Assembly (NCBI GenBank): GCA_010093605.1
Contig: MU004197.1
Span: 682,001-746,000 of the forward strand
Length of the DNA: 64,000 nucleotides
Direction: 5' to 3'
From: Lophium mytilinum
Taxonomy: Eukaryota
Under the pieces are notes generated by a model that was not told where the DNA came from, made no database searches, and saw only the letters and a program-made list of their open reading frames with translations. Shown here in pieces: positions 7,134 through 61,700 of the stretch. Each line of letters opens with the position of its first letter. Positions within the stretch are counted from its first letter, which is position 1. The translations under genes were made by a program, and so were the position numbers.

Positions 7134-8858
7134 TTACGAGATGGTCTTCTCCCGGAAAGTGATCCCATATTTCTCGGTCAGCGTCTTCATCAGGGGCCTT
7201 GCAAGCTCAGGTGACATGGGGGCGAGGATGCCCTTCTCGCTGATAGTGCCGTCCAACACCTGCTGCACCGCGACGGCGCAAGGCACGCCCACCAACTTCG
7301 CCATCGCGGAGTAGCCCTTGGGGTCACCGTATTCGCACAGGGTCGAAGTGCGTGTCTCCTTGCTACCGTCCTTGTTCTCGATCTCGAACTTATGCTGGAG
7401 CATGACGAAGTCACGTTCGCCCTCCTCGTACTGCATCTTCTTCTCCAAAGTAGCGCATAGGGTATCGAGTGGGTTAGAGCGTGCGGTAATGTCCTCGTCG
7501 CCGAAGAGACCAATCCAGCGGAGACCATCGATGATGCGATCCTTCTCATCGTTGTTCTTGAACGTAGTGCGCGAACTGATAGCCCAGATGATGTCCTCTT
7601 CAGCGCGGGAGGTGGCACCAACGATCTTTGAGGTAGCCTCCTTCCAGCTGATCGAGGCGCCGGGCTTGAGGTAGTCTTTCTCCTCATCGCTGAGAAAGCC
7701 GATATCCACAAGAGTCTTGATGAACTCTGGGAATCCTTGATAGCGCAGAGTGCCTCGGATGATAGTCTGTGCCTCAGGAATCTGGTAGCGCACCCGATAC
7801 GGAGTAGAATCGCGGTTGGGGTAGGCGACAAAAGCATAGCCGGGGTAGATGTAGTAGGGCTGGGCGGTAGCCATCAGTCCTTCGGATGTTACATCAACAA
7901 TCTTGCCGTCCTTGTAGTATTTGGCGGGATTTCGGAGAGCTAGTAGCACACCACGAGAGCTCCAGCTGAACTTGTATCCGAGCGGGTTGTCCGAGTCCTC
8001 GGGTGCTGGGAGTCCTCCACAGTACGACAAGAAGCTCAAGACCTTGCCACCAGCTTTGTGAACCTCGTCAATCGTAAGGACGGCGGAGAGATGATCAAGT
8101 CCGGGGTCAAGGCCAATCTCGTTCATGACTGTGATGCCTGCGTCTTTGGCCTTCTGGTCCAGCTCTTCCATCTACAATGTTTAGCGCTTTGTGTATACAA
8201 GATCGATTTGAGGCAGACGTACAGCTGGGCTGACATAGGATGTGGTGACAACATTCTTCTTGTTTCGGATCGCAGACTCGATGACCGTGGCATGGAAGGT
8301 GCTTGGAAATGTTAGCATTCATGGTTTCTGTAAGCGAAGGGCCAACTTACTAAGGAATCAAGCTGATAACGACGGAAACTTTGGCAACCTCCGCATCGAG
8401 GGCTTTCGCATCCGAGACATCGAGCTAAACATCTTCAGCAACATGCGACTGGAAAAGGAAGACATTGGATGGCCTACGCTGATGGCGGACGCGTTCTTGA
8501 TGCCGCTAGCTAGCTTCTTCGCGCTCTCCAATGTTCTGCAGGCTATGACCACATCAACTGATGCCTCCAGTATACGATTGTGCCATCCTACCAACTGTGA
8601 CGCTGACGCCCGAGTTTCCTAGAATCTCCGCTGTGGGACGAGTGCTGTTCCATTGTTACGAACATCCGGATAGAATGAGGTGTTATACATACACGAAGCC
8701 TGCACCAAGCAGTAGGACGGACCTGGGAGTGAGTTAGAGATTGGACCAGACATTGGTGAACAGGATTGCTTACTTGGAGCTGCCGAGGATGGCTGAGAGG
8801 AATGGTTATTTTGAGCCCAATTGGAGGTCAGAGCGTACTTACGGAGCATGGAATCCAT
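7134..8858 (-). CDS. LYS9: Saccharopine dehydrogenase (NADP+, L-glutamate-forming)
   Basis: Spliced KSVLLLGAGFVTRP...VACRTLESA...SLIPYTFH...TTSYVSPA...MNEIGLDPGLDHL...SYCGGLPAPEDSDNPLGYKFSWS...GTLRYQGF. The 5' micro-exons are 16, 19 and 30 nt; the exact start codon is less certain. Confidence 0.95.
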
Positions 8859-9212: not shown

Positions 9213-12053
9213 ATGCCGTCTGCCGTGGACTCCGGGGATGACCTGTATGCTGCTGTTAAGCAGGTAGTTAATCCTCATGAATTCTAATTGATGTTCTCAA
9301 TGACTAACCCAAGCTGTCTAGATAACACAGTCGTCTTCAGACTCGGACTACATTGACCAGCTGGTCCCTGTTATGAGAGATGTTCGCTATTCGGACCGCG
9401 CAGGGCATCTCATCCAAGCGCTAAACCAGATATCCGCTGAGCGGGAATCTGAAATTGAGCGCATGTGCAACTCAAACCATCAGGAATTCGTCAGCTCTGT
9501 GAATTCTTTATTACGAGTCCGGGAAGGCACTGTGGACATGACCACCCAAATTCTCCAGTTGAATCAATCCATCCAAGCCAGCACGGAGAACCTCGCCGCC
9601 CAAAAGAAAGCCCTTGTAGACTCGCGCGGAGTACGGCAGAGCATCGACGAGACATCGGAAGCTCTGAACGCATGTCTGGAGGTTCTCCGCGTCGCAAATC
9701 AAGTACGAGATTTACTTCTCGAAAAGAACCATTATGCGGCCCTGCGTTCCCTCGATGAACTACAAAACGTTCATTTGAAAGAGGTCGGACGGTACAAGAT
9801 TGCCGAAATGATCGAAAGATCTGTTCCGGCTACTCAGAGGTTAATCGCAAACGCGGTCATGGACGATCTAAACACCTGGCTTTATCGCGTCCGGGAAGCC
9901 TCTCAGTACTTGGGCGAAGTTGCCTTCTTTCAAACGGATCGCCGACGGACACGCCATGAAGAGCGAATGCAGCAAGACGAACACTTCATGAAATTCAAGC
10001 TCAACTCCGCTATGGACCTTGTGGCTGACGAGACTGATGAGTTTGATATCATGAACAATGAAGAAATGCAGACGGAATTCGACTTTTCTCCGCTCTTCGA
10101 ATGCATGCATATCCACGAAACTTTGGGCCGTAGCGATTACTTCCGTGCGGAATACGCTTCGAATCGTCGAAAGCAGAAGGATTTGATCATTCCTTCATCA
10201 CTAAACCTCCTAGACGACGATGGCTCTGATCTTAGCAGCTTTCTGGAAAGCATTGCCGGCTTCGCAATCATCGAAAAAGCGACGATCAAGAGGACGAATA
10301 ATTTTAGAGCGAATGTCGACGTTCGTACTAATACCTGTCCTCCGAGACCAACGCTAATCTCAAGCAGGTCGATGAACTATGGGACTCCATGTGCCAAAGC
10401 ATGGCTACCTTGATAACCAACGGATTGCCTTTGGTCGACAATGACAATCTTCTACTCAAGATCAAAGGACGAGTTGCACTCTTCATGCTTACTATGGAGG
10501 TGGGTGTCATTCGCATTCGCCATGCATAGAAAATTCTGACGTCGTTTTAGAAATGGGGATATTCGGTTAAGAATCTTTACGATTTGCTACTTACTCTTTT
10601 CGACAAATACTCAGACCTCCTCAAGCAGCGCTTTAGTGAGGACTTCCAAGAAGTAAGTCTCCTTGTTGATTTCCTACAGTGATGCTAAACCAAGACAGAT
10701 TGTTTCGACTGATGACTACATGCCAATGCCAATCAACAACCTCGAAGAATACGACAAAGTCGTCAATGTCAGCTGGTACACCCCAAGCCAAGCCCGCGAG
10801 CAGCTCACGTACGTATCCAACTCGATAGCTCTAAGTACACTGATTAACCATTTAGATTCCCCTGCGTTCTTCCATTCTCCCAAATGTATCCTCTCTGTTG
10901 CATTGACATTCGCAACTTCCTTAATCAAATATATTTATTCTCCGATGATCACTTCCAGCGCTCTACCGTCATCGACGAGACGCTTAGAAATGTAAGCCGA
11001 GTCCGGCAATGTAAACCCAGCATATATATACTTATACATCGAATGGGCCAGTCTCTTGATGAGCTGTTATGCGAAAAGGTCTGCCAATCTTTGGTAGAGC
11101 GCCTCAGCTCTCAATATCCCGGACAAATTGTCCAGATCCTCACCAACCTGGAGCATTTCGAGATCGCTTGCCAAGAGCTGCAGGACTTGCTTTTCCAGGC
11201 ACGATCATCAGGTTCCGCCACCGGCCCTGTCATTCTGCAAGCAACGGAGCAGTTCCGTAATGCCAAAAAGACGGCATCGGATCGTATCTTCGAACTGGTC
11301 AACTCCAAGATCGATGATCTCATCGAAACTGCCGAGTATGATTGGTATGTGCTCAAAGCTCCTCTGGATCTTCGACGCCACGTCACTAACGATGCTCCAG
11401 GATGGCTACGGTGCCTACCACAGAGACCAGCAATTACATGCAGGAGCTTACGCGTTACCTCTCTAACATCATGAACTCCGTTCTCCTTGGCCTGCCAACG
11501 GATATCAAAGAGTTCATCTACTTCGATGCCCTTAGTCACGCCGCATCCGCAATTTTGGTAGCCCTTCTCATTCCATTCCCCATCTGAACTCGGAACTAAC
11601 TCGTCTTGTCTCAGGAACTCCCCCTACACGAATCCGTGAAGCGAATCACTCCGGCCGCGGTCACCGCTCTCGTGACCGACGCAGACTTCCTTTCGTCCTT
11701 CGTCGACAGTTTGAACAACCCTATCTTGAAGGAGAATCTTGACGAGCTGGTGCAAACCGTGGCACTGATGGCGACCGACAACTCGGACGAATTCTTCGAC
11801 GTAGCACAGCGGAATCGAAAGTATGGTAAGGTTGACAGAGAGAAAGGAGCTATCTTGATTGAGAAGTAAGTTTTCATCACCCGGATTGCTCAGATGACTG
11901 CGACTCTTCCGGCGTGCATTGCGACCTAGTAGAAAGCCTAGGGCTGTTGCTAACGATCTACGCAGGGTCATGGAGGGCGCAGCCGTGGCAGCGCAGAGCC
12001 CGTCAAAGCCGTCTGATAGGTTTGCGACGATTGGTTCCAGGTTCCGAAGATAG
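9213..12053 (+). CDS. SEC15: Exocyst complex component Sec15
   Basis: Multi-exon. Motifs EIERMCNSNHQEFVSSV, DFSPLFECMHIH, DDYMPM, LPFSQMYPLCCIDIR, QIVQILTNLEHF, IFELVNSKIDDL. The last exon ends ...GSRFRR TAG at 12053. Confidence 0.92.
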
Positions 12054-13839: not shown

Positions 13840-15600
13840 GAGGTTGGGTCACGTTTTGACGGGCTGGCTGTTTGCTGGATGGGCTACTCCTCACAGCGGT
13901 GCTGTACCTGCAAAGCTAAATATCGAGCTATGGTATATCCGCATGTCTGGATCTACGGCCTATTCCTATAGGGATTTTCAGTTGCACAGATTGGTATAGT
14001 GGGAATCGGGGTCGCTCTTGGTCGGGGAATTGCCTGCTGGCTTGGCCACCTCTAACGGTGGTGTTGAGCGGGCAAGCTATATGTCCAAGCAGTGTGGTAG
14101 AAGGGCTTGCAGCTGAGGGGTTCAAAAAGTCGAGAATAATACAATATTAAGATTGAAGTAGCGGATATTAGGCTAGTCTTTTACTAGATAACTACCGGTT
14201 GACCGGGCCACTCCTCACGGTGGTATTACGAGAGCAAGTGGGAAGTCTTGATGTTATATACTGGGGAAGCGGCGCAATACGTTTCGAAACTCCACGCTCT
14301 ACATGACGTTACGGCTGGGGAAGGGGAAATGGAACTACCCTTTGACCGTGTGGAGACGCGTGTGTTAAGCCACTTCTTACAGCGATATTGAATGAGCAAA
14401 GGCTGAGATATAGAGACCCGAAGTAGAGCCCGAGTGCTAGCACGTCCTAAATTAAGATGTAAAGGTTCATACAACAGGAATTAGGCTGCCTTTTAAGTAG
14501 CTTGCGATGTGATGGCCGAGCCACTCCTTACAGCGTTACTACTCAGCCAAAAGCGAAATTTGAGTAACGAAATATCCGTGTAATCAATGTCAGAAGCTTT
14601 TTATGTCATGTTCACGCCGAGATAGTGGAGATTGGATAGCCTCTTGGCAGCCGCAAGACATGCTGGTTGGGCCGTTCCTTACGGTGGTATGAAAAGAGCA
14701 AGAGCAAAGCTTAGGGAGTATGATATCTGCGTATTGGGTATATCAAGCTACGAAGACGATGTAACAGCTAAGGCAATGACAATTGGGCTACCTTCTAACC
14801 TAGCGGCAACACACTTGCCAGGCCGCTCCTAGCAGTGGTGTAAAAGAGGCCGGAGAACTGCTTAGACGCGCTCAATTATTACCGGTAGATTCTCAACTCT
14901 CTATATACAATGTGAAGGCCAACACATCATATATTAGACTACCATTTGACTAGCCTGTGCCCTACTAGCCAAGGCGCTCCGTACGGTGGCGCATAGGAAG
15001 CAAGACTGAAGCTGAAGCAGGGCAATATCCTCTTCACGCGCTAAAGATTATTAAAATAAGGACGTTTGAGTATGTAAAGGTTGAAGCGTCACATATTAGA
15101 CTACCTTTTGACTAGCCAGAAACCTACCAGCTGAAACACTCCTTACGGTGGCGTCTGAGGAGCAAGACGGAGGTCTAAGTAGTGCAATATTCTATCCATA
15201 TGCATAGGGTTACAAAGATCACCTCCTTGAAGCATGTGCTCCTTGAAGCGGTGTTTATTAGGCTACTCTTCAACCACCCGGTAACCTACTAGCCAGGGCC
15301 CTCCTGACGGTGGCATCGAAGAAGCAATATGGAAGCTGAAGCAGAGTAATATGGTATCTCATGCTTGAGGCTATTAAAATCACCTCCTTTAGACATGCAT
15401 ATGTTGTCGAGGTGAAAATTGCACTACCTTTTGACCGCTTTACTGTCTACTAACTAGAACCCTCCTTGCAGCGGTACTAGATGAGCAAGAAGGAAGCCTA
15501 AGCAGTAGGATATCCGACGTCACTCGTCACAGCTTCATTTAAGTCTTGAATCTATGTAGCATGTTTGAGAGACTTCATATTGAATCAAACGTCATGAACA
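13840..15600. repeat. Degenerate tandem array, ~11 units of 150-164 bp
   Basis: An anchor like GGCCACTCCTYACRGYGG sits at ~13881, 14043, 14205, 14367, 14518, 14669, 14820, 14971, 15134, 15295 and 15457. A second anchor, ATATTAGACTACC-like, is in phase. Confidence 0.85.
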
Positions 15601-15732: not shown

Positions 15733-16511
15733 CTACTCCATCTCCGTATCCAGTAACCACTCCGCGTACTCCTCTTCCGTCAGAACAAACTCCATCTCCT
15801 CATCTTCTTCCCCCTCCTCGTCCCCCTCCGCCTCCGCCAACGCGCGCTCAAACTCCTCCTCTCCCTCTTCTTCCAACAACGCCGCGTACGCATCTTCCAA
15901 CGCCAAGCACGCGCCGACGAACTCCGCCACAGTCACGTTGCCCCGGATGATTTGGCCCGGAAGCACCTCCCAGTCCCGCACGATCTTGTACACGGTGACG
16001 GTGTCCAGGTCCACGCGGGACAGGCGCTGGGGCTCCTCGACCTGCCATCCGGCCTCCCAAAACGCCTCGAAATCCGTCTGAACCACCGTGCCGGCCAGGT
16101 GAAAGGCGAAAACGACCTGGCAGCGGTCGTGTGGGCAGTACTGCGTGATGAGAACCTGATAATTGGCGTCCGGATCGCCTTCGGGGACCACGCGGAGGGG
16201 AGCGTCGGGGGTGGCGGGCGTGGCGACGAGGTCGGGAAAGAGGCCGGGAATCCGGCACTCGCAGGGGATGCGCTCGTCGTCCTTGTCGGGGTAGAAGCTA
16301 CCCTCTGCGCGGCGGGGGCTGGGGACGGGGGGTGCTTGGAGCCACAATTGCTCCCGGATGAGGGCCATTTGGGCTAGGGGAGTTAGTTTCATGAGGTAGA
16401 AGGTGAGGGGAGAGGGTATGGCTTACCTTGGGTGACGGAGAGGGCCTGCGGAGCGTCAACGAATGAGTCGTTGGAGGCGGTGCTGCTCGGGGAACCCGTT
16501 GGCGACGGCAT
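15733..16511 (-). CDS. Orphan hypothetical protein (~241 aa) with a highly acidic C-terminal tail
   Basis: Exon 16427-16511 (MPSPTGSPSS...) joins in frame to ORF 15733-16392 via intron 16374-16426 (GTAAGC..CTAAC..TAG). Coding-like codon bias. Confidence 0.75.
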
Positions 16512-17531
16512 CTTGGAGCTCTTGATGGTGCGAGGTGTCGTGGAAGAAGGGTGGTGGTTTGGCTGCGATTGGAACGGAGGAGGCGGAGGGTTGGAGATGA
16601 CAAGTGAGATGGTACAAGGTACTCTGACGACAGTCGAAATTGGTCGTATTGGGCTCGAAGCTTGAGATTGCTTAGGCGCCGTCGAAGGTATGGTGGATGA
16701 TTCTCTTGCACGCAAAGGAAGGCTGGCTGTTGTACAGGAGAGAGTGTTGTGGATTGGAGGTGACGTGGCAGCGAGGAAATCGGGGGGAGAAGTCTTCTTA
16801 TACTTCGCCACCACCTCACTTGCGACATCCCCAACGCCGAAGGTACCCCTTATTTCCGCATCCCAAGAAGCCTTCCATACCCGCACATATCCCCGCAATT
16901 ACTCAGTCACGCCCTCCTGATTCCCAACGCCCTTACCAATGCTGGCCTTGGCGACACCCACTGCTGCGACGCGTCTCGCACGTGTGAATCTGGCGCCTTT
17001 AGATTGATGCCGTGAGTGAGGGAGGGCAAAGATCAACTCCGTGAGTTTCGCTGGCTGCAGGAGGATTGGGCTTGGTGAAGGGCTCTCGGACGATTCCGTA
17101 TTGCCCACAACAGTTTTGCTGTCAATGACATTGTGATTTGCAGCTGCTACGCGTGCATTGACTGCTGCGCTGGTGGCAGTCTGGATGGGCTTTTAGCTGA
17201 CTGTGACCTATGGCAGCAAGGTGATATTTTGCTGGAGAAGCGCGAGGCCGGCAATGTTGTGGGCAAGGCCTGGAGGAGCGCGGCAGGACAAAACACCACG
17301 AAAACGCGTCGCAGCGCATAAAACACATGCTGCAGGTATGAGCGAGCGCGTTGAATGCCTGTCATGTGCATCATAGAGTATATAGCCGGCTTCATGCCCT
17401 CGCGCAAGCAGCCGAGCTGCTGAGATCTGCCCGCAGAGGCTTCCAACGTGCTGTGAAAACGTCAACAACGCCCCCAGCAAGCAGCAAAGCCCTTCATAGG
17501 CGCTCTGCGCGTAGATAGAACTTCAAAAAAG

Positions 17532-17732
17532 AAAAAAAGGCAAAAGAGTATCCCCCGCACCAGCAACACTATTGAAGAGTGAACCTGGTGCGGAGACTAA
17601 TCTCTTCGCCATATACTTTACCTTGCCGTTGCCGTGCCAGGAATCGAACAGGGGGAGGGGAGACGTACCTTGTGTGTCAAACTCCGCGGGATTCGAGTAA
17701 TCCTACCACCCCGCCATCCCGCGGAGTTTGAT
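17532..17732 (-). ncRNA. Candidate Pol III-transcribed structured ncRNA of unknown class
   Basis: TATATATTT at 17763-17755; predicted start A at 17732; A-box-like TGGCGGGGTGG 17716-17706; B-box GTTCGATTCC 17649-17640; perfect 16-bp 5' stem; 3' stem with G-U pairs; T4, T7 and T6 runs between 17545 and 17525. Confidence 0.65.
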
Positions 17733-20700
17733 GAAATGCCGCCAAAATAAAATGAAATATATACACTACTCAGGGTAGGATACATATCTCACCACTTTGC
17801 TGGAGGATGTTCCCGGGCATAGGAGCGAGCGTAAGCCAGGTATGTATGCGCAAATACTTTTGTTTGGAATGCGGGCCACGTGGTGAGGCAATCGCTTCGT
17901 GAGGTTTTTCGGGCGGGGGATTTTTGGGTTTGTCGAAGACAGCACCCCACACCTTTGACAGACTCGCAACGCCATGAGGTCTTCAGACATTGCTTGGTCC
18001 TATGCGCATGGCTACGTAGGGCTTGTCGTGATCTATAATGGTGTTGAGGGTTGCTGAGGCTGGCCGGGATCGGGGATGCTAAGCGGGGGGGATTTTCCAT
18101 ACAACGACGCCATAGGCACCACCGGCAGCCTAGTAGAAGGAGGTGACAGCAGGAGAGTTCCAGAATAGATCAGTCATTCTTTCTTTAGAGTTAGCGATGC
18201 ACGTCTGATGCTTTCTGATACTTTTTTATGGATGCCATGTGGTGGCTAAAGACCCGGCATCCCCGCACCGCAATTTGGTGGTCAAGGACATTTTCCGCAC
18301 AAACCGAAGAGAGCGACTACTCATAAGTTTGAATGCTTCTTTTTTCCTATGTCAAGTAAGCTTCGAATCATGTTGGCATGGTTGCACACGGTATTGAGCC
18401 TGGTGGCCACTTTGGTGTCGTAAACTCAACATCCCCGACGAGGATTCACCAGGGCGGTAGCATAGGAGCCCACAGTAAGGAAAGCAGTCTCTGCCACTAC
18501 GGGGGCTTTGCCTCTTCGTCATGCAATACAGCCTCGATGAAGATGGGGATGGAACTGGACGTCCTGAGGACGTTCGACGTTCGACGTTGGCAGCGTGGGG
18601 GTGGGAACCGAGTACGAGCTCAGGGGCTAATCCCAAAGGGTGGTGACGCCGGATGTTTGCGGGTAGAACCATGGAACTATGACTTGTTAGTAAGCCCTCT
18701 ATCTCAACTTCATCAAACATCTGAGAAAGTTCAAAGAAATGATTGCAGCTTGTAAGGAGATGTACGAGCTCAGCCAGTTAGCGGTATGGGTGTTACACCA
18801 TGGCGAAGATAGACTGCACACCCGTGCCGATATCTCAGGCACCCGCCACTTCAAACCCGACTTTGATCTTGGTCTCGTTACTTGGACGATGCTAGTGGGG
18901 AGTAAGGCACCACCCAAATTGAGGACCCTGAAGAGTGCCATGCAATGATAGCGGGGAAGATGGAGCTTGAGCCCTCACTTGCGCTGCACAGGGAAAGGAG
19001 GAGAAGGAGCGAAGCATTTACTCACCACATATCCGGCTTGCACTTACCAGTTGGATTCCTCTGAGAAAGAAAATGGGAAACGAGGCGGAGTAGGCCACCA
19101 TCGGCGGCTCCAGTGTGCAGAGGCATCAAAGTAACGGGCCTGAGAAATCTACCACGCGAATTAGCCACTGGTTCAAGCTCGCCAATTGAGTTTGAACTGC
19201 GCTCATCATGTGAACACGTGTAACGACTAGACATCTACGCAACCCATAACATCCAAGCACGGTGCATTTGCGCCTCTGCTGATCTGGTGCCTCCGAAACT
19301 TTTGCTTGTAGTCGAAAGGCTGGTCCTTCTTCATGGCCCTTCTTCATGGACCCCTTTCCAATGGACTCCGCTCATTCGTACATGACAAGAAAGAATGAAA
19401 AGATGTAGCACCCAGGTAACCAGCCGGCTTTCGACATAAGGCTCGGAAATCAATCCTACTAGCCCAGACAAGGTGCGTCTTGGAAGTATTTCATCTGGAC
19501 AAGGAAAGATGGAACCCTCCTGGTAATTGCCGCGACCGCGGTGAGAAGCAGTGGTCTGCAGACCGTGCGCACCGATGATGCTTTCCCCTCGCTATGCTTA
19601 TTCTTGCCGTCCTTAGTTCAGAGAATGCTATGAGGAAGCAATCTCAATGAGAAAAGGGTGGCGGAAGGGCAGGTTTCCGATGAACTGGATTAAGACGCGA
19701 TGTTGTAAAACGAACTTACCGAGTGTTTGGATGCCATATACAAATGCTGGTCAAACAGCCTCATGAACTATCAGTATCCTATCAATTCGTTAGCTACTAT
19801 TCCACGACTCTCAGCCATGCGAATTAGGGAGAGATCGAAGACATGTAACGCCCAGAAAACCACACTGCTTTAGATAACTGGTTGCAGCGGACAGTCCCAC
19901 TGGCCCGTTGGCCGGGGAGAGTTGGAACTAATCTGGAATTTCAGCGACGAGAGCGGAGCCACGGTTCGCCTACCTACTCGAGGTGGGACCTAGGTCACAT
20001 CTCTGTCACCTTGGTTTTCTCTGGCCTTCCTTTCGAGAAATCTGCTATCAGGAAGCAGTTTCAGTTGAATGAAGGCTATTGGAATCTCTGTTTTGGGGAA
20101 GGTGATACGCGTTACTAGTGCAATTTCAAAGAAAGGAGCTTACTGGAATTCCGATGGCAGACCGCATTACAGCGATGCTCCTCGAAGGTACTTCTTGATG
20201 CTCAGAACCCTATCAACTTGTTAGCCTCTGTTCCAATCTCGTCATAATAACTTCATCTCGTCATGAGAACTTCAACCGCAATGAACCAAAGAGAAAAATC
20301 TGTAACGCGTCGGTACCATGCCACATAGCGCCTTACCATGGCGTGGCGCAAGGCTCCACGGCCCAAGCCGGTGCGTGCTGCGAGGTCTACCTAAATAGGA
20401 GATCCTCACACTTTGCCTCGACACATCAACGGACAGCACCTTCAGGGACTGACCCCTACTACGGTGTTCCGACTTGGACTGGACCTCGGTAACACCTCAA
20501 GCGACACCGAAGGCGATGAGATGGTGACTCTGCTCAACGCAAAGGCAGAGTCTGCACGCTACCATCTATATGCTCAGAATTCTGATCGCCTTCTTTGATC
20601 TTGCCTTTGTTGAAAGCAGAGAATGCTATGAGGAAGCGAGCTCTGTTACCATAAGGCGACTGCGGGAGCTCCTGGAATGAGGATTTCGAAGTGAAAAGAG

Positions 20701-30559: not shown

Positions 30560-33300
30560 AACCCCCAGGAGCACCTTCAGAGAGGGTTGGACAAGCTCGT
30601 GCTGACTTCTTGCAGGAATGCGACCGTGGGGAAGCTGGTATTGTGGCCACTTCTGGAGGCTGGGGAGTTCACATATGACACACCCGTTAGGAGGGATTGC
30701 GGCGAAGAGGGTGTACTGGGTGGGTATTGACACATAGGAGGTTGTTCTAGGAGCCTTTGGGATCCTCGTCCTGGCTTCTTGCAGGATTCCGACCGTAGAG
30801 GGGCGGTTGGAAGCGCTGGTTTGGGAGGGCTTTTAGGGGTGGAGGAGCGACCCCTTAGGCAATAGTACGGTAATGTCTTCCATCTAGGTAGGTATTGCTA
30901 CCCAGGAGGTGCTTTTAGGTAGCTTGAAGACCTTGATCCTAACATTTCGCACGGTTGCGACCGTAGGATCGATGGTAGTCGTTGTCATCGGTTCGAAGAT
31001 ACTAAGGTTGGTAGAAAAGCGACTCCTTTGGGGAATCCTGGGATCAAAGTTGAGCTGGGTGAGTATTGGTACCCAAGAGGTATTTTTGAGGACCTTTAAG
31101 AACTCCATCCTAACTTGTTGTAGGACTAGGGCCGTGAGAATGCCTTCATTGTCGCAGATTCGACTTTTTGAGATGGGCGAGGACCCACCGCTTGGAGAAT
31201 GATACGACACCATGGTTCATTCAGGTAAGTATTGCTACCCAGGGGGTGTTTGTGAGGATCATAAGGACCTGTGTCCCAACGTTCTGCAGGATTGCGACCG
31301 TGGGATCGACTATAGTCGTTGTCGTCGGTTCGAGTACTTTGGGGTTGGTAAAAAAAAAGCCACCCCTCAGGGAATGTTATGGCAATATGGTCGATCTGAG
31401 TAAGGATCTATACCTGGGAGGTGTTTATGAGCACCTTAAAGGTCCCCATCCTAGCTTTTTGCAGCAATCGACCCGTTGGAACAGTGTTGTTCTCGCGGTT
31501 TTGGTAGCTTTAGTGTGGACAAAAGAGCCACCCCTTGAGGAGTATGACGACAACAGGGTCGGTCTGGGTGGGTATTGGTACCCAAGAGGTGGTTCCGATG
31601 ACCATGAAGACGTTCATCCTAACTTTTTGCAGGAATCAACACGTCGGAATGTTGTCGTTGTCGTTGCTCCTGAAACGTTGATTTCTCTCGTAGAGAAGCC
31701 ACCCCTCGAGGAGTACTGCGGCAATACGTTCGGTCTGGGTGAGTATTGATGCCCAGGAGGTGTTTCCATTATGCTCAAAGATCTCCATCTTGATGTTTTG
31801 CGGAAATCGACCGGTCGGAATGGTGTCGTCGTCGCTGCTCTCGAAATCTTGATTTTTCTCGCAGAGAAGCCATCCCTCGAGTAGTACTATGGCAACATGG
31901 TCCATTTAGATGAGCATTGTTACCTTCAGAGCTGTTTCCATATATCCTGAACATCTTTGACCTAACTTTCTGCAGGAATCGAACGTCCAGAATAGTGTTG
32001 TTGCCGCCGGTTTCGAAATGTTGGTTCTTCTCGCAGAGAAGCCACCCCTCCGGGAGTAACACGGCAGTAACGTCGATCCAGGCAAGTATCCATACGCCAG
32101 AGGTGTTTCTAGGGACCATGAAGATCTCTGTACTAAGTTTTTACAGCATTGCGATCGTGGGATTGCCGTCGTTGCCGCCGCTTCCCAAATGTTGGTTGTT
32201 CTTAGGGAGAAGTCGTCCCTCCAGAAGAAAAACGGCAGCTAAGTCAATCAGAGCAAGTATTGTCTTGCGAGAGCTCGATCCAAGGTCCCGGAATATCTCC
32301 AAGCTGAAATTTTGCAGGAACCAAACGTCCTTTGGTGTTATTGTCGCCGTCTGGGCAACCTTTTTAGCTTGAACAGTCGGGCGACGAGGACTCGTATGGC
32401 AGCGATGTCGATCCGGGTGAGCATTGATGCATGGGAGCTGCATCTAGTACCATGTAGGATCCTCCGGCTCATGTTACACAGTCTCCAAACCGCTGGCATG
32501 GGGTTGTTGTTGTCGTCGCTGCTTGGGCAATCTTGTCCTCGTAAATGAACCAAGCGATGGGGTCGATGCCATGGGAGCATCGGGTTGCAATACGTTCAAA
32601 CGCTCGTGAGCTGATTTCAAGGGCATACATGATCTCCATGCTAACTTTTTGCAGCATCTGAACTGTCGAAATGCCGTCGTTGTCGCTGCTTCGGAACTGT
32701 CATTCTCGAGAGAAGCCAGCAAGGGACATGTATACGCCGTCAAGTTTGAGCCGAGTGACCGATGACACGCAGGAGCCCAGTCTAACATCCTGTTTGATGC
32801 TACTTTGACCTTGCTGCACGGCTTGACTGCTCGGAATGGTCTTGTTGTCGCCGCTTCTGGGGTGAAGTTACTTGCTTGTGTGGAGATCACCCAGCGAGGC
32901 AGACCTTGCGAGCCATATCGATCTGTGAGGACATTGACACACACGAGCTTCATCCCATATCTCAATGGATACACACACCAGAATTCTGTCCGATTTGGCG
33001 CATCGACATGCCGTCGTTGCCACCGATTTCGAAGTCTTTGACACGGCGGAGGCGGCTCCCGACGAAAACACTTTGCCTTATAGCAACGGCGAGCTAGAAC
33101 AGCTCCCAACACCCGAGAGATACTTCTCGCACGCTTGGAGAGCTCCATGCTAACTCCTCGCAATGTTCGCAACGCTGGATTGGTGTGTTGTCGCCATTTC
33201 GGCGGTCTTCATGGCCAAACGACGGGAGAAAAATAGACAGTAATGCCAGGCCAGAGTATGTTCAGACCCCCGAGAGCTCCGTCTCTTGTCTTTTTCGATC
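30560..33300. repeat. Degenerate tandem array, 14 or more units of ~170 bp
   Basis: A TGCAGGAAT..ACCGT-like anchor occurs at 30611, 30780, 30948, 31119, 31285, 31460, 31628, 31799, 31971, 32142, 32313 and 32650. AGAAGCCACCCCTC and GAGTATTG...CCCAGGAGGTG motifs are in phase. The right boundary fades. Confidence 0.85.
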
Positions 33301-38739: not shown

Positions 38740-39290
38740 CCCAGACTCCTAGTCTCCCAGACCTAAACCGAAACGGATTACCATCTCCCAATTCCCAACT
38801 CTTGGCTCTCTCGAAACGTATAGAGCACAGATGCCAGATCTAAAAATAGCATCCCCGACTCCACCATGGTGATCCGATATCCGACCATGGAACTCATCGT
38901 ACCAAGATGTGCACAGCCAATCGAAACACGTTTCCAGTTCCCCAAAGCCGTAAGGCATGGCCTCGCCGGAAAAGTATGGAGTCCAGATGCTAAAAATAAT
39001 ACCCTTCCTCGAGTCCACTTCACGAGGGTCTTTGGTATCTAATCCGTGGGAATTAAGGGTACCAAGATGGCCGCAACCAATCGAGAACGCTTTCAGTTCC
39101 CCAAAGCCGTAAGGCCTGGCTTTCTCGAAAGGTATGGAGCCCAGATGCTAATGATAACACGCGTCCTCGAGTCCACTCTACGAGGGTCTTCGATATCTGA
39201 GCCTTGGAAATTCAGGGTACCAAGATGGCCACAACCAATCGAGAAAAGTTTCGTATTCCCCAGCCCCGTAGTGCTGAGCTTCTTCTAAGT
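38740..39290. repeat. Degenerate tandem repeat, 3-4 x ~159 bp
   Basis: GTACCAAGATG..CCAATCGA at ~38899, 39059 and 39217. CAGTTCCCCAAAGCCGTAAGGC and CCAGATGCTAA are repeated. Confidence 0.85.
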
Positions 39291-39469
39291 ACTTGCCAGC
39301 ATGACTTTGAGGGAGAATGCGGGAATGATGGAGGTAGTCGATTTGCAGAGAGGCTGTCATGCTTTTCGCAATAAAATGGTGGAACTTCGCCCAGTAATCT
39401 ACCCTTCTTATCTACAACGCTACTAATCCCACGTCAAAAACTCCTTGTGCATCGGGTTCACGCCCCCAA

Positions 39470-40000
39470 GAAACCACTCAGACGCCACCGACCAACTGTC
39501 AAAGTCCCCGAATCAGGGCAATTGCGATTTGAAGCCTTGAGACTTCGATATTGCGTGCAACACATTTACACCTTGATGAGCCACTTCTGACACCACTAAC
39601 CAGCTGTCAAAAGCCCTGAATTAGGCTGCTTGTAATATAAGACCTTGAGACTTTAACATCGCGTGCACCACATTCTGAGCTAGACGGGCCACCTCTAACG
39701 CCGCTATTCGGCTATTAAAAGGACCTAATTAGATTGCTTGGAATATGAGACCTTGAGACTTGGACATCGCGGGCACTATATCTTGACCTTGATGGGCCAC
39801 CTCTAACGCCGCTATACGGCAATGACAAGCCCGAATCAGGCGGCTTGCAACATGAGGTCTCGAGACTTTGACGTCGCGGGCACCACATTCTGGACCTCGA
39901 TGGGCCACCTTCAACGCCGCTACACGGCGGTCAAGAGCCTCCAATCAGCTTGCTTCTAACATAAGACCTTATGACTTTGAAATCGCGTGCTCCAGATTCA
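39470..40000. repeat. Degenerate tandem repeat, 5 x ~108 bp
   Basis: A CCTTGAGACTT..ATCGCG-like motif occurs at ~39535, 39643, 39752, 39860 and 39967. GGGCCACCTCTAACGCCGCTA is in phase. Confidence 0.85.
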
Positions 40001-42104
40001 TAACGCTATAATAGGAAATCGAAGGCGTGATCTGGGGTCTGTGTGGTGCCTTGGGTTGGGGAATGATGAGAAAGCTTCAGCGGTTAAAAGTGTGAAAATT
40101 ACGGAGAAAGGTATCATTTTGTGAGGATACGGCTGGCTCAAGAAGTCCTCTGTAGTGATGTAAAATTAACGGTGGAGGATAGGATCAAGAGTCGGCTAAT
40201 GCAAAAGGAGTGATGTTCCCTGGTTCTGAGGTTCTCGAACCGTGAAAGCTTATAGCTGGATTAGGAATTTCGAAGGTGGTGGAGCAGAGTGTGGAGTGCA
40301 GAGGATACATTTCATCTGCCGTCCAAAGTCCAAAGTTGTTTAGTATCCCTGGGCCCGACGCATTTGGCTCTAAAATATCAGTAGGAACACAACCAATAGG
40401 AAGCCTCGAGTGATTTGATAACAGCTGCAGCGAAGGACTTGAGCAATACATGCCCTCTAGGCTTTTCGTACACTACCCTAGCATCGCCTGGGGTCCTGTA
40501 GTACAATATGAGAGATTAGAAAGGGACAGTTCTAACAAGATAAAAAGCGTTGCGGGCCACCTTAAACGGTGCTAGACTGTCCGTTTACATAGTGTGTGTA
40601 ACAGAGAGTCCGAGCGTTGCGCCACGACGGGCTAAGAGATAGTTGGATTGGGAATGTCGAAGGCGGCGGAGAAGAGTGTGGAGTGCAGAGGACACATTTC
40701 ATCTACTGTGACGAAGTCAAAACCTCCTTGGTATCGGTACCTCCTGACACGTTTTGTGGCGCTTCAACGTGCTGATCGAACTGGGATCGAATGGTCAAAT
40801 GTCAATTTGTCAGCGCAGCCTGAGGTACTAGGCAGGCAGGAAATAAATGGCACACTACAGCATTTCAACACTGTCTGAGGTGGCCCAAAGAGCTATCAAG
40901 CTTGCCAAAGCGGAATTTTTATGAAAAGCAGTAGCATACTGGCGGACCTCAGGCGGTGCTAAACAAACGTATACAGCATATAAATAGTGTGTATATACCT
41001 TATGGATCTGTAAACTGCTGCTCTCTATTAACCCTTTATTACTACGCTGCCTTCCGGATGCACCGGTTACCACTGCTTGAGGGGCCTTAACGAGTTTCTA
41101 CAGACCCGTGATGGAAGAACTTCTATCCTATCTGAATTTCCGAAAATGCACTGAAGCACTCCAAACGGTGGCATACACACGTATGTACAACTGAGTGAAT
41201 GCACTAACGCTAAAACACTAAAAAGGCTGCTCTCCAGTGTTGTTCCTCCACTCTGGCTTATTAGGTGTGCCAGTAGGCAGAGACCCGCCGGCGCCAATGT
41301 TTGTGTATGGGTCGTATTTTGGCTTCCAACTCCCTTCTTCTCTTTGAACGACCATTCTCCAATCTTTCAAACCGGGTATCCTACTCAGCTCCTAACACGG
41401 GAACTCCCCGTTCAACCAATTCTTGGCCGCCTTGCCTTGGGGATCTTCTTGAAAACATTGACAATCAGCGCGGAAATGGGTGTTGATTGGAATGATTATC
41501 ATGTAAACGGACAAGACGTGGTTAGGGACTGGGAATCGAAGGATGGGCTAGAAGAGAATCGATAGCAAATATGGTGGAGTTTGCTGGAGACTCACGGTGA
41601 AGGCTGAGTTGATGTAACGAATTGTTGCACTAATAGAACGAAGTAAGGATTTCCTGCGCTAACAGAATTCGAATCGATGCGCTAATGGGATTTTCAGACG
41701 ACGTGCTGCTGATGGATTGTTGATGGAAGAGGATGAATCCCGCAGTAGGCGCCCTAAGGGAATGACCACCATGATTTGTACGTAGCTCTGGCAGAAGGTG
41801 TTACCATTGAGCGAACGAGATAGGTAGGAAGACGGAGCATCGAGAGCAAGTGCGGTCGATATCCCGTAGCCCTTCGCAATTAACTCTTGGTTGTCGATCA
41901 GGGTGCAAGCAGAGAGAACACGCAAGCAATCTTTCCTCCAGACTTTTGCATATTTTGATAGTAGCGCAGGAGGCCTCCTAGCAGGCTATAATAGATCGGA
42001 AAAGGTCAACGCTAATAAGGTCAGGAGCTTTGGGGCCACCTCACACGGTGTCGGGTTACTACTTTGTGTCGAAGGGAGCCTGATCAGGAGATAGTACATT
42101 CGCG

Positions 42105-42995
42105 CTACTCCCAATCCGGCATTGCATCATCGTCAACATGATGCTGCTGGAGTTCCCCGGGTTCTGGCCTGAAATGTGCGACTTGTTGGGCCCCTGTATG
42201 TGAGTACTGATATGGAAGCCGCCGAAGACGCTCAGTCAACGAAGCTAGGCGAGCATCGAGTTGCTCGAACTGTTCCTCAGATGTAGAAGGTGGAGTAGGA
42301 TGGAACGATGGAAAAAGCATTTGCTCTGGTCGGAGTGTAGGAGTCGCTACATCGGCGGACTGGCTGTTATCGGGCCCAGCGCGCATAGGCTGGGCTTGTT
42401 CAAGCGTCTCACCGTTTTCCAGGCGTCGAGACAGCTCTTCTCGATTCCTTCCAAGGTTCTCCCGCGTACGCCGGAGCGCATTTTCCAAGCGCGCCTCCAG
42501 CGCAAGACTCTCCTGGATATCTTGTTCTAATCGAGCCAAGGAGCGAGGCTCATCCGTAATGCGATTGAACAGAACCCCGTCCCGCCGACGGACAGGGTCG
42601 CGAATGATCAAGTCCTCATTGTCGCCAGCCTGCCGATAACGAGTGAAGCGTGCCCGAAAAGCCCGAAATCGGTGCTCTTCTGTGAGATCCAGAGCGCGGG
42701 GCTGTGGCTGTCCACGGTACAGCGAGGCCCTACACATAGGGCACGTATTTTGATTGCTCCTACCGCAAGAAAGCCAAGACATCAAACAATCTCGACCGAA
42801 AACATGAGTGCAGTTGCTGATGCCGGTGATCTGGACAGCGCGATGGTTTGCGTCTATATCCTCGTGGCAGATTGGGCATGCATCTGGCACTTCGGGATGA
42901 CTACCGTCTATATCGGTGAGGTTATTGGCGATAAAGACCTGAAGATTGGCGGGGATGTTGGAAGGCATGGCCGATGAAGTGAGAAGATTTGGCAT
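42105..42995 (-). CDS. RING-finger protein (probable E3 ligase), single exon
   Basis: 296-aa ORF with CPIC-x18-CTHVFGRDC-x14-CPMCR followed by coiled-coil-like segments. Confidence 0.8.
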   Translation of the reverse strand: MPNLLTSSAMPSNIPANLQVFIANNLTDIDGSHPEVPDACPICHEDIDANHRAVQITGISNCTHVFGRDCLMSWLSCGRSNQNTCPMCRASLYRGQPQPRALDLTEEHRFRAFRARFTRYRQAGDNEDLIIRDPVRRRDGVLFNRITDEPRSLARLEQDIQESLALEARLENALRRTRENLGRNREELSRRLENGETLEQAQPMRAGPDNSQSADVATPTLRPEQMLFPSFHPTPPSTSEEQFEQLDARLASLTERLRRLPYQYSHTGAQQVAHFRPEPGELQQHHVDDDAMPDWE

Positions 42996-45370
42996 GGTTT
43001 GGTGGTATGTTGTGGCGATCGAGGTTGAGGTTGAGGTCGTGGTGGGCGGTGACTAAGTAGGCGAGTTGATAGAAAGCGGTCGAAACTTAGGTGCAGCTTG
43101 TAGGAGTACGATTCGCAGCTGATGCTACCTAGTGCGCTCAACCTCCTCGCAGGGGTAGGCGGGGCGGCTCCTGAGGAGTGAAAGCGTACGGTGTCGTATT
43201 GCTAATAGGGCGGAGGGTGCGGTGAGTGTGTGGAAGTCGACGGGAGGGCGAGCGCGGCTTGCAGAGGTATGAATACGGGGAAAGCTTCCTGACGAGGCGG
43301 CTTTCACTTAACCGTCACAGATGATTGAATCGCTAGTGAATGTTAACGTTTGTTTATGAGCAACGTGAAAGGCTGCTGAACAACAAGTGTAAAGCGTTTA
43401 CATTACTTTCACCACGATTTGACATCATACCGCGTACACTCTTACAGGAATCCTTTTATCTCACAGTAATTATTCGTCGTTCCAGCGTACGCGCGCTCTG
43501 ACTAGAATTTCATGCACCACGTTTCCAGGACTGGATGCAACGTGTAACCAAAATCGACAATAGTCGTGCTACTATGTGAAGGATTTATACTTTGCAAAAT
43601 TGTGTGTTGGTGGTACCATGGTTTTCGTGAAGTGCTCGACCGTGGTTGCAATGGCGTCCTTAGTCATCTCACGATTGAAATATCCACGATCAGTTGAGCC
43701 CTGGCACTGGTAGTACCATATAAGCTAGATAGGTACAGCATGCCTGGCGTATTGAATGAGACGGCGTCTGAGCGTGAAATGGCCTTCGATGCAGTTGAGG
43801 AGTCATAACGGATTATGAGATAGGGATCTATGAGACTTATCTCGGAGTTGAACCTGATATTGCTAGACTCTAAGCGCTAGGAGAAGAGCCGTATCTGGGA
43901 AGGTGTTGGGAGATGTGGCAGACGATCGATTTAGATAGAGACTGATGAACTTACTTACGGTAAGAGACTCGACTGTGAGGTTAGTAGACTATTGCACTGA
44001 CCGGCCAAGTACAGATACAACCGAGGCCAAGAATGTAGAACATAGATTCCAGAGCGACTTTCATAGGCTCGACGGAGGTGGTGTGGTGGCTCGTTAAAGC
44101 TAGCTGTGGCAATCAAGTTGTAGTAAACGGAGCGAATAGTGATTTAGTGGAATGTACGAAGGAGACCACTGGTAAATCTGGTGGTGGCATGGGTAAGTGC
44201 AACGATTTTCAAGACAAAAAGTTAGTCGACAAAAACATTCACAACGCGGGACTAGAGATTAAACCGAGTACGCTTCCGTCACGGTTGCTGTGACGAATAT
44301 TGGAAAGGCTATGCTTCCTTCCTTTGTAATCATTACCCAACGGGGGGGCAGAGCATACCAGAGTCTACAGAAGTAATCCCACATTAAAGCGAGGTACCAC
44401 GTTACTCTGGAGATGGCATTACGATGTTCCTCTCCAGGGGATGTCGGATGAATGCGATTATTGGCGGAAGGATTCAGATGCGGTCGGCCCCAACAGAAAT
44501 CACTAGGTGATTGCACGAGTATTACGCCTTTCGGCTTATGTCACCTGCATGTTTGGTACACGTTTATTAGCTGATATTCACTATGTTTTGTATAAACCAA
44601 CAGAGCCTGGGTTGGCTTGGGGAAAGCGACGTAGGTGCTGAGACTTGATCGGATGATGCCAAGGGAAGTAAAGCAAGGCTAAGAATAGCTCAATCCTCAG
44701 AACTTGTCCCCCGTTCTAGAATTTACAGAAAACGTACTCAGGCTAGACAGCTTGTTTGCCTTATATGAAACATAAGCCGGATATCGAGAGATGCGACGTT
44801 TGACAAATACTTATTTTGAAATGCGGGGAAGAAGAGAAGAAGTTGAGAAAACGACATGGAGCAAGGACGACTAACATGTTCGCGTTCAGGAGTCAGACAA
44901 GGCTAATGAATTTAGCAAGGGAGTACCCCGATGACAGACTTATGCCTGTGATATGGACATCGAGGTTGTGATGTGCCAATGCAGGCAGGGTTAATGGTCC
45001 TAGGCGTAAACGGAGCTCTCTGACTGCTATCAAGTGTAGCGAATACCGCATATTGATGAGATGTAAGAGGCATATTCAGCAGTTCCGTCCCGGTCGAAGC
45101 CTGCAATGTGCTGTCAGTGAAGGTTAAGCTGCAAAGGAAGTCAGCACAGCTAAGACTCGGACTAAACCAACTCCGATACCGGTCGAATTTAAGACCCTAG
45201 CACAACTCATGAGCGGGGATACGTGGAGCATTTGTAAGACCCATACACAGGCTATGCTTTTCAATAGGTGACAGAACAGAAACAGAACTATATATTGATG
45301 CTGGCCTCTCTTGCCACTATTGGTATTGGTATATATAACAAAATCTAGGCGATGTATGCTCATCTTACCA

Positions 45371-45459
45371 GCGCGGATAGTTTAATGGTAGAATTCGGTC
45401 TTCCCACCGTCGACGTGACATGTATGGCCGAGGCCCGGGTTCGATTCCCGGTCCGCGCA
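45371..45459 (+). tRNA. tRNA-Gly(CCC) with an 18-nt intron (45407-45424)
   Basis: Acceptor stem GCGCGGA/TCCGCGC plus discriminator A; D-arm AGTTTAATGGTAGAAT; anticodon stem CGGTC/GGCCG around TT-CCC-A; T-arm CCGGG-TTCGATT-CCCGG; downstream T5; upstream TATA. Confidence 0.95.
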
Positions 45460-56215: not shown

Positions 56216-58556
<2,341 letters not shown>

Positions 58557-59849: not shown

Positions 59850-61700
59850 CCATTTTGATCCTCTCCCTCTTTAACTTCATGCTCCATCACGTCCTCGGTG
59901 TTTCAATTTAATCCGCAACTCTTCTTCACCCGCGCCATTGCCAATAAGAGCATGCCTGTTGATGCACTACCCCTTCCTCCTCACTAGCCATCTTGTCCTC
60001 GTACCGAGTGTTTTGATTAGCCGGCACCACTCCATTCGCAGCATTCCGGAGCGTTTTTGTTGGAGCACGCATCTCATTGTGCCTTTCGATAAGGTTTTTG
60101 ATCCGCCACTCCACCATGATGTGAGGTGATCTCACATTTTGACCCGCCGACACGACTCCATGTAGTTTATTCGTCATAGGATTTTGCTGGACCAGGCACC
60201 TCATGCAAGTATTCGATTCAGATCTTTCTTCCACCACTCTTCCACCATGAATCTGGGAGAAGCCTGATTTTGACTAGTGGACACGCCTCCATGGGCGCAT
60301 TGTCCCACGAATTCTTTTTGCTGGACCACGCACACTCATTCAAGTCTTTCGTCGAGGTTTTTGATCCACCACTTCTCCACCATATATCAAGAAGACAGCT
60401 AGTTTTGACTAGCCGACAAGACTCCATTCTGGACTTCCTTCATCTTTTTTTTGGACTACGCACACTCATCGGCCTCGATCGTTGCAATCTCTGATCCACC
60501 ACTCCTCCGCCATACGACATGACGATAGCTGGTTTTGACCAGCGGACACGACTCCATGAAATGTTTCCCTGATGCCTTTATTGGAACACACACTCATGTG
60601 TGGTCTTTTGTTGGGCTTTTTGATGAACTACTCCTCGACCCATACCTCTATCGCTGAGAAGATGTTGACCAGCGGACACGACTCCATGCGTGTGTTTCTC
60701 AACCTTTTTTCTAGTCCGCACAGCTTCCTCGCTGCCATGGTCCTGGTCCCACCACCCATCGCGATTGGCGGGGCGAAGTCCGACTACCGACACGCTTCCA
60801 TTAGGAATTTTACGAACTTTTTTTGCTGGACCACGCGTCACATGCGAAAGCCGGATATCTCTTTCGATCTCCAGCCATCGTCCGAGGTTATACCAACGGT
60901 TTGGCCGCCAACACGCCTCCATCGCTCATCATATTCGGTCGGTTTTGCTGGACCACACACCACATGATAGTGTAATAGTACGGATTTTTGATCCAACACT
61001 CCTCCACCCCAGGCATCGTAATGTGCCCACTTGTGTTTGACTGCAAGCACGCCTCCATTGCTGACTTTCTCATCGACTTTTGCCTCGCTACACACCACTC
61101 AGCCACTTGTTTAGGCGCTTTTGATTCAATCCTCCTCCACCCCAGCCATGACAGTCTTTAGTGTGTTGGTTGACTGCCCGCACGCCTCCATGAAAGAATC
61201 TTTTCCCGGGTTTTGCTGGACTACACACCATGTTCAGATAATTTGGATTTGATTTCAACTCAACACCCCTCCACCCCAGCCATTACCATCTTCCTAGTGG
61301 CATCTGATTGCCAACTCGCCTCCATCCTTTTCTTCTTGGTAGACATTTTACTCACCCACACTCCACATAATCCAGATAGAGACGCGGTTTTGATCCTCCA
61401 CTCCTCCAACCTAGCCACAGCAGTCTTTAAATCGATCTGATTGCCAACACGCCTCCATGTGGTATGTCTCGCATGCGATTTTGCTCGACTGCACACCACA
61501 TCAGTCTTTTCGAAGAATTCTTTTTAATCCAACACCCCTCCACTCCAGCCACAACAATCTTCCAAGCGCAGTCTGGCTGCCAACACGCCTCCATCACCAT
61601 ATTTCCGATGTAATTTTAGGTACTCAACCACACGCCACATGTAGTTTTAGACGCCAGAGTTTTGATCCAGTACCCCTCCACCCCAGCCATGAAGCTAGGG
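59850..61700. repeat. Degenerate tandem array, ~14 units of ~120-140 bp
   Basis: A TTTTGATCCA.CACTCCTCCACC-like anchor occurs at ~60096, 60359, 60492, 60619, 60986, 61119, 61388, 61521 and 61660. ACACGCCTCCAT and TTTTGCTGGACCAC are in phase. Confidence 0.85.

Follow-up and report, generated by a model that had tools for sequence, protein, structure and literature searches.

Does the minus strand at positions 17525–17763 of a 64,000-nucleotide (nt) stretch of Lophium mytilinum DNA encode a small non-coding RNA of its own, or does it belong to a larger transcript? The stretch, called the window here, covers positions 682,001–746,000 of the forward strand of contig MU004197.1 (assembly GCA_010093605.1). 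A first-pass annotation of the letters alone had proposed an unclassified RNA of about 195 nt that RNA polymerase III (Pol III) would transcribe, with a precursor of microRNA-like RNA (milRNA) or a sequence resembling a short interspersed nuclear element (SINE) as other options. Our analysis revealed that the candidate straddles an exon–intron junction in the leader of a spliced minus-strand gene of RNA polymerase II (Pol II). Its constrained core is a block of about 100 nt, made up of one hairpin and a U tract, which stayed constant while the neighbouring intron sequence diverged. We see roughly even chances that the candidate is a conserved intron-borne element of the Pol II pre-mRNA, acting either as a cis regulator of retention versus splicing or as a hairpin RNA released from the intron. 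Coordinates refer to the minus strand in the numbering of the window unless marked otherwise.

The structure of the host gene was obtained from public sequence data. A search of sequencing runs returned eight runs from four studies, none of them on record as RNA, and the contigs of four of them, X1, X2, X4 and X5, were compared with positions 16300–19300; runs X6–X8, which had small word shares of 0.15, carry no weight here. X1 is probably the source DNA; one 28.7-kb contig crosses the candidate with no difference and no branch. X2 was near-identical to the window (0 differences across six contigs), and its contigs contained two joints at which the skipped parts read CT..AC on the plus strand, equal to GT..AG on the minus strand. 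The first joint links 17669 to 17450 and skips 17451–17668 (218 nt), while the second skips 16374–16426 (53 nt). Joining the exons by coordinates gave an open reading frame (ORF) of 241 amino acids, letter-identical to the hypothetical protein BU16DRAFT_543703 of L. mytilinum. X2 behaves as RNA, since the 53-nt joint gives exactly this recorded protein and since its cover nearly ends above 18590; it was therefore taken to be a transcriptome. When 1.84 billion representatives were searched, the protein had just one relative, which belongs to Mytilinidion resinicola, is 61% identical and shares the MPS start, so that the coding sequence (CDS) and its start codon at 16511 are credible. The minus-strand transcript, which extends from about 18590 down to about 15590, consists of the following parts.

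Leader exon 1, 17669–18590 (to the limit of the X2 contig), minus strand: non-coding; holds the TATA-like run, the A-box-like site and hairpin 1; a 922-nt contig without differences.
Intron 1, spliceosomal, 17451–17668, minus strand: 218 nt, with GTACGT at 17668, TTGAC, and a closing CAG at 17451.
Branch-point-like TTGAC, 17461–17465, minus strand: 11 nt before the 3' splice site; its GAC and the GU after it complement intron positions +3 to +7.
Exon 2, 16427–17450, minus strand: the remainder of the leader, with the start codon at 16511.
CDS intron, 16374–16426, minus strand: 53 nt, with GTAAGC, ACTAAC and TAG in this order.
Exon 3, 15733–16373, minus strand: the remainder of the 241-amino-acid CDS including the stop codon.

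Both forms of the 218-nt intron could be observed in X2, a 58-nt contig being spliced and a 276-nt contig unspliced. The depths of the X2 contigs (45.6 upstream, 22.1 unspliced, 27.5 spliced and 60.2 downstream) are contig means that cannot rank the parts, and they support neither an exact retention ratio nor the inference of a Pol III roadblock. Transcription, its strand, the splice sites and the two isoforms are read from these contigs, with X2 counted as RNA on the grounds given above. The spliced leader, consisting of exon 1 and the first 939 nt of exon 2, is 1861 nt long and carries 30 ATGs, against 32 ATGs in the intron-retaining leader. Such a length and so many ATGs are out of the ordinary for a fungal mRNA that is translated; the leader may belong to a long isoform that goes mostly undecoded, or may be a non-coding RNA from upstream to which the mRNA is fused. 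The ORFs around the candidate and exon 1 had no match in Pfam. Upstream of exon 1, beyond a nearly uncovered 120 nt, X2 contigs of low depth (3–6) lie at 18714–19149. The minus strand has a GTAAGT near 19046 and CTAAC followed by TAG near 18690–18678, which could mark an extra upstream exon and intron; no joint was seen there.

The promoter-like and structural elements named by the first-pass annotation could all be located on the minus strand by reading the sequence and by motif search, at the coordinates it had given.

TATA-like run TATATATTT, 17763–17755, minus strand: 31 nt before the C-A at 17733/17732, where 17732 is the proposed start.
A-box-like site TGGCGGGGTGG, 17716–17706, minus strand: at +17, in the loop of hairpin 1, exonic.
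Hairpin 1, 17731–17677, minus strand: a perfect 16-bp stem with a 7-bp G-U-rich extension; exonic, ending 8 nt before the 5' splice site.
B box GTTCGATTCC, 17649–17640, minus strand: inside the 218-nt intron, with 56 nt between it and the A-box-like site (about 57 nt had been claimed).
Hairpin 2, about 17610–17540, minus strand: core of 12 bp, internal loop of 3x3, tip of 4 bp closing a 7-nt loop, and AAGAG/CUCUU as the lower stem.
T4, T7 and T6 runs, 17545–17542, 17538–17532 and 17530–17525, minus strand: directly 3' of hairpin 2, intronic.

The exon–intron junction, which had escaped the annotation, runs through this set. The TATA-like run, the A-box-like site and hairpin 1 are exonic, the B box, hairpin 2 and all T runs are intronic, and the 5' splice site precedes the B box by 19 nt. 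A functional splice site therefore divides the proposed 195-nt RNA, and Pol II passes its supposed terminator. Lying as it does within the leader of a spliced gene of ordinary kind, the candidate is probably no independent gene.

Both hairpins are well defined on the transcribed strand. The 16-bp stem of hairpin 1 pairs 17731–17716 with 17692–17677 and is the sole 100% complementary pair among the 12 inverted pairs listed for the window. Hairpin 1 folded at -35.0 kcal/mol (z -7.0) on the minus strand and at -28.0 kcal/mol on the plus strand, and the corresponding values were -32.5 (z -4.45) and -25.4 kcal/mol for hairpin 2, and -81.7 (z -4.28) and -74.1 kcal/mol for the whole 203 nt. As both hairpins are more stable on the minus strand than on the plus strand, the earlier argument that the G-U pairs favour the minus strand holds, and its strand assignment is right.

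Conservation, which the first-pass annotation had asked for as a check, was evident in two further runs with related sequence, X4 and X5, which come from two other studies; X5 is an air metagenome. Differences were listed only away from contig ends. The X4 contig (151 nt, over 17535–17685) had 3 differences, and the X5 contig (178 nt, over 17512–17691) had 12 differences and 9 gapped bases, distributed unevenly. In hairpin 2, positions 17543–17613 had no listed difference in X5, while the adjoining 48 nt at 17614–17661 had 5 substitutions and six gaps totalling 9 nt. Cover by X5 is missing at 17692–17879 and below 17511, which places hairpin 1, the A box and the TATA run outside the X5 comparison.

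Conserved block, 17513–17613, minus strand: clean in X5 for 17543–17613; its extent to about 17513 is suggested by word share.

The word share of X5, 0.15, would fit an unbroken identical block of about 100 nt. Another X5 contig gave patchy matches to exon 1 at about 78–87%, which indicates that the locus as a whole is present in the relative but diverged. Three 36-nt matches between X5/X4 and the region, with 5–6 differences in A/T-rich sequence, were taken as spurious. Scans of metagenome, genome and viral contig collections with a hairpin 2 pattern returned 0 loci each.

How might such a block act? We suggest that it works as minus-strand RNA made from the Pol II pre-mRNA. It may be a cis element setting the balance of splicing and retention of the leader intron, which would decide the upstream ORFs that the leader carries; alternatively, it may be a hairpin RNA released from the excised intron. 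Structure prediction gave one feature compatible with the former. Intron positions +3 to +7 (ACGUC, 17662–17666) are complementary to GACGU (17458–17462), which includes the predicted branch A. When 300 structures of the intron by itself were sampled, none left the branch A unpaired, and 99.7% had a paired 5' splice site. This pairing, if formed, would mask both splicing signals, which would fit partial retention. The predicted distance from the 5' splice site to the branch is 6, compared with 206 in linear sequence, and is due to this same complementarity. Hairpin 2 itself was considered as a zipper that shortens the branch distance, and this role was rejected as not specific, since 22 of the 60 shuffles of the intron interior, in which the first 6 and last 25 nt were kept, did as well.

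Several observations weigh against an intron-borne Pol II element of this kind. The zipper test, as stated, gave hairpin 2 no specific part in splicing geometry, and the block, with its unvarying stem, loop and U tract, resembles a discrete RNA product more than a splicing aid. Contigs cannot show RNA ends, and a short RNA inside the locus is neither visible in them nor ruled out by them. X2 counts as RNA by inference only, and the conservation comes from two short contigs of low depth (2 and 3.4). The complete Pol III-like order of motifs described below is not expected by chance, and the B-box core was spared by the changes in two relatives; the intron-borne reading has to treat both as coincidence.

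No known RNA class could be assigned, in agreement with the first-pass annotation. At gathering scores, Rfam matched only a transfer RNA (tRNA) at 45371–45459 in the whole window. Relaxing the threshold to E<=10 over 17200–18100 gave four matches (E 1.9–5.1), all far under gathering scores and all rejected. A tRNA was dismissed, as ARAGORN found only 45371–45459 in the window and no Rfam tRNA match appeared in 17200–18100 even at E<=10. Motif search showed the U6 ACAGAGA box, U5 loop 1 and an Sm site to be absent from the candidate stretch. A box C/D small nucleolar RNA (snoRNA) does not fit, because the intron contains neither a C box, even at one mismatch, nor a D box; the only C-like site (one mismatch, 17795) and the only CUGA (17773) are exonic and 22 nt apart, and the Rfam match there had an E of 1.9. 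A box H/ACA snoRNA, a class marked by two hairpins with pseudouridylation pockets, an H box and an ACA 3 nt from the end, was rejected likewise: the perfect stem of hairpin 1 offers no pocket, the 3x3 loop is all that hairpin 2 has, and no ACA follows hairpin 2. Telomerase RNA was set aside because no 8-mer of (CCCTAA)n, a repeat that may not be the host's own, occurs on either strand of 17400–19300. The plus-strand ORF at 17515–17700 has 61 codons from stop to stop with no ATG and looks non-coding. In the literature consulted, no described fungal motif matching the element was found, and the ies6 and atypical snoRNA motifs, as given in excerpts of PMC5640933, are unlike it.

Mobile elements fared no better. 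A SINE or a miniature inverted-repeat transposable element was rejected, as no second copy of either hairpin arm was present in the 64 kb at <=3 mismatches, bar one 16-mer at chance level, and the SINE-like option of the first-pass annotation was dropped with it. Copy number was judged from the 64-kb window and the unbranched 28.7-kb DNA contig of X1, and distant genomic copies are still possible.

The Pol III-like features deserve separate treatment, because taken together they exceed chance for the window. Singly, they are ordinary. The A-box-like site TGGCGGGGTGG fits 10 of the 11 positions of TRGCNNAGTGG (1 mismatch), and the pattern, relaxed to admit the site, had 3 matches in the window against 1.76 expected. 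The B-box consensus is GGTTCGANNCC, and GTTCGATTCC agrees with it at 10 of 11 positions, the first G being missing; GTTCGANNCC had 4 matches in the 64-kb window against 2.15 expected. Runs of at least six Ts are scarce by comparison, numbering 5 on the minus strand of the 64 kb, with 2 of these at the candidate. The ordered set of TATA run, A box (<=1 mismatch), B box and at least five Ts occurred once in the real window, at the candidate, and in 0 of 300 simulated windows; omitting the TATA run raised this to 1 of 300. The simulated windows were first-order Markov sequences, and the criteria were set after the site had been seen, which makes these figures optimistic. In type-2 Pol III genes the A box lies about +18 from the start, and excerpts of PMC5356446 give a range of 31–93 nt for its distance from the B box; the A-box-like site here is at +17, with 56 nt between it and the B box. 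The window also offers a true Pol III gene for comparison.

tRNA gene with an intron, 45371–45459, plus strand: Rfam 53.3 bits; anticodon not named by ARAGORN.

In this gene TATATATA precedes the first base by 30 nt, a T5 run follows closely downstream, and the B box is the identical 10-mer to GTTCGATTCC. With its TATA-like run and T5, it makes the Pol III gene model of the first-pass annotation apt for this genome. A further GTTCGATTCC lies at 31975–31984, within a tandem array with a 171-nt unit.

In filamentous fungi, very few Pol III genes beyond those for tRNA, 5S, U6, signal recognition particle (SRP) RNA and RNase P RNA are known to us. Could the candidate nevertheless be an undescribed fungal Pol III gene with a leader promoter, nested in sense within the host transcript? 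The TATA run would then be occupied by TFIIIB, and TFIIIC would bind the two boxes, which would belong to a 5' leader of about 120 nt that evolves fast and runs from hairpin 1 through the B box. The primary RNA would measure about 195 nt, and the product would be the conserved 3' hairpin (about 80 nt) plus its U tail, ended by T7/T6 and perhaps processed into milRNA-like small RNAs. Such a gene, which we consider rather unlikely but worth keeping in view, would yield a novel class of small RNA or else a conserved milRNA precursor made by Pol III, and splicing of the host would remove the product or compete with it. The joint occurrence of the full syntax at this one site, the two rare T runs and a TATA run placed as at the true tRNA gene all speak for it. 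The changes near the B box in X4 and X5 (17650, 17643 and 17639) fall on flanking or N positions and leave the eight specified bases unchanged, and in X4 the box becomes GGTTCGATTCC, the full consensus; by our own estimate the chance probability of this sparing is about 0.05–0.13, a statistically weak and only suggestive signal. A variable leader before a constant 3' hairpin and U tract fits genes of the RPR1 and SNR52 type as described in excerpts of PMC5356446, and excerpts of PMC3547838 report that Neurospora milRNA loci with comparable elements rely on Pol III. Set against this are a working 5' splice site just ahead of the B box, a Pol II transcript that crosses the whole unit and is spliced, an A box with one mismatch and a B box lacking its first G, the absence of a tRNA-like fold from the region, and simulation criteria chosen post hoc.

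The same boxes could also be leftovers of an old tRNA gene or a SINE head, perhaps still bound by TFIIIC, with no functional RNA. Yeast offers precedents in ZOD1 and YGR033C, loci that descend from ancient tRNA genes, and in sites bound by TFIIIC only, the extra TFIIIC (ETC) sites (excerpts of PMC5356446). The best local alignment of the region to the tRNA gene of the window covers the T arm and the 3' acceptor side with a score of 27; 7 of 490 pieces drawn at random from the window scored that high, as did 19 of 500 shuffles. Yet this alignment is weak and seeded by the B box itself. There is no cloverleaf, no tRNA match at E<=10 and no other copy in the 64-kb window or the unbranched DNA contig, the 95 nt separating the B box and the first T run do not match a tRNA gene, and the constant 100-nt downstream block is left unexplained, so that a relic appears very unlikely. 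Another proposal sees no function at all: hairpins and boxes would have arisen as neutral accidents in a long leader and intron, and the apparent constancy of the block would come from the sampling of two short contigs. On its side are the chance-level frequency of each Pol III motif taken singly and the low depth of those contigs; in addition, introns are expected to be richer in T runs than the window at large. Against it, a perfect 16-bp inverted repeat within 80 nt is expected, by our estimate, about 0.001 times in 64 kb, and this stem is the only perfect one among the 12 inverted pairs listed; both fold z-scores are low, and 71 listed-clean bases of X5 adjoin 48 bases of which 14 are changed or missing. 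Absence of function is on these grounds improbable. Finally, the constant block coincides with a small ORF.

Small ORF MAKRLVSAPGSLFNSVAGAGDTLLPFFLF (MAKRLV...PFFLF, then TGA), 17612–17523, minus strand: 29 codons, coincident with the conserved block, present in the intron-retaining form only.

The block might then be an upstream ORF (uORF) whose translation is confined to the isoform that keeps the intron, with the downstream ORF controlled by the peptide or by the act of translating it. The small ORF opens with one of the two ATGs that retention adds, 1 nt in from 17614, the first X5 difference, and its end falls inside the block; the X5 flank gaps sum to 9 nt. Zero synonymous changes in 29 codons would be odd for coding constraint beside diverged flanks, though, and the start codon sits in a poor context, with T at -3. 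T runs make up the 3' third of the ORF, and at least 18 ATGs (our estimate) precede it in the leader; a coding role is hardly to be expected.

The surroundings of the candidate are as follows. It borders some 10 kb that are poor in genes: between 16422 and 26997, no stop-to-stop ORF reaches 200 amino acids. Pfam analysis of the window revealed a saccharopine dehydrogenase (7134–8171, minus strand), the N-terminal part of exocyst Sec15 (9322–10413, plus strand), a RING-finger protein (42105–43052, minus strand) and a Ste12-like transcription factor (56594–58117, plus strand). Just 3' of the end of the host gene, at 14932–15352, three tandem copies of a 162-nt unit are 75% alike. Diverged tandem arrays were also present at 30567–33208 (unit of about 171 nt), 38928–40001 (108 or 159 nt) and 60011–61690 (130–134 nt), and the 171-nt array overlaps long ORFs on both strands (31138–31749, plus; 32474–33208, minus).

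Fungal introns in 5' leaders are reportedly under the control of RNA structure, introns with thiamine pyrophosphate (TPP) riboswitches being an example. The candidate resembles structured introns that tune splicing in that a stable structure lies in an unusually long leader intron whose spliced and unspliced isoforms coexist. It is unlike TPP or other riboswitch introns, as no riboswitch model matches it. Zipper stems in yeast introns of the RPS17B type tune splicing, according to excerpts of PMC2536676; the candidate departs from these as well, in that hairpin 2 gives no specific shortening of distance and the sequence, rather than pairing alone, is constant. The intron-encoded "atypical snoRNA motif" of Li and Breaker (2017; excerpts of PMC5640933) leads to intron-encoded snoRNAs as a comparison. 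Like these, the candidate is a constant island in an otherwise diverged intron, but its intron has no C/D boxes, its hairpins have no H/ACA pocket, and no ACA follows hairpin 2.

Among Pol III systems, RPR1 and SNR52 of Saccharomyces cerevisiae carry their promoter boxes in a 5' leader (excerpts of PMC5356446), and the candidate shares with them the order of A box, B box, conserved body and T runs, with a TATA run upstream. In contrast to them, its body is neither an RNase P RNA nor a C/D snoRNA, it sits inside a spliced Pol II transcript, and it is known from sequence. Milr loci of Neurospora crassa with TATA-like elements, putative A/B boxes and poly-T rely on Pol III, and most milR genes of this fungus are intergenic (both from excerpts of PMC3547838). 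The candidate has a hairpin of pre-miRNA size with TATA-like, A/B-box-like and poly-T elements, whereas its place, in a leader exon and intron, differs from the mostly intergenic milRNA loci. According to excerpts of an eLife re-analysis (PMC9757828), fungal mi/milRNAs lie wholly within introns only very rarely. Yeast tRNA-gene relics and ETC sites (excerpts of PMC5356446) are alike in having a B box outside any tRNA, with weak tRNA-like similarity around it; they were, however, defined by chromatin immunoprecipitation and have no conserved downstream hairpin.

If the intron-borne reading is true, the locus would be a further case of a conserved RNA structure in a leader intron under regulation, here in a fungal gene of restricted lineage, which would be useful for annotation and unsurprising. 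If the Pol III reading is true, the gain would be greater, as it would offer a concrete locus for interplay between Pol II and Pol III or for the origin of milRNAs. Measured against these systems, the element is best read as a conserved structured element in a leader intron, with a modest chance of being something rarer.

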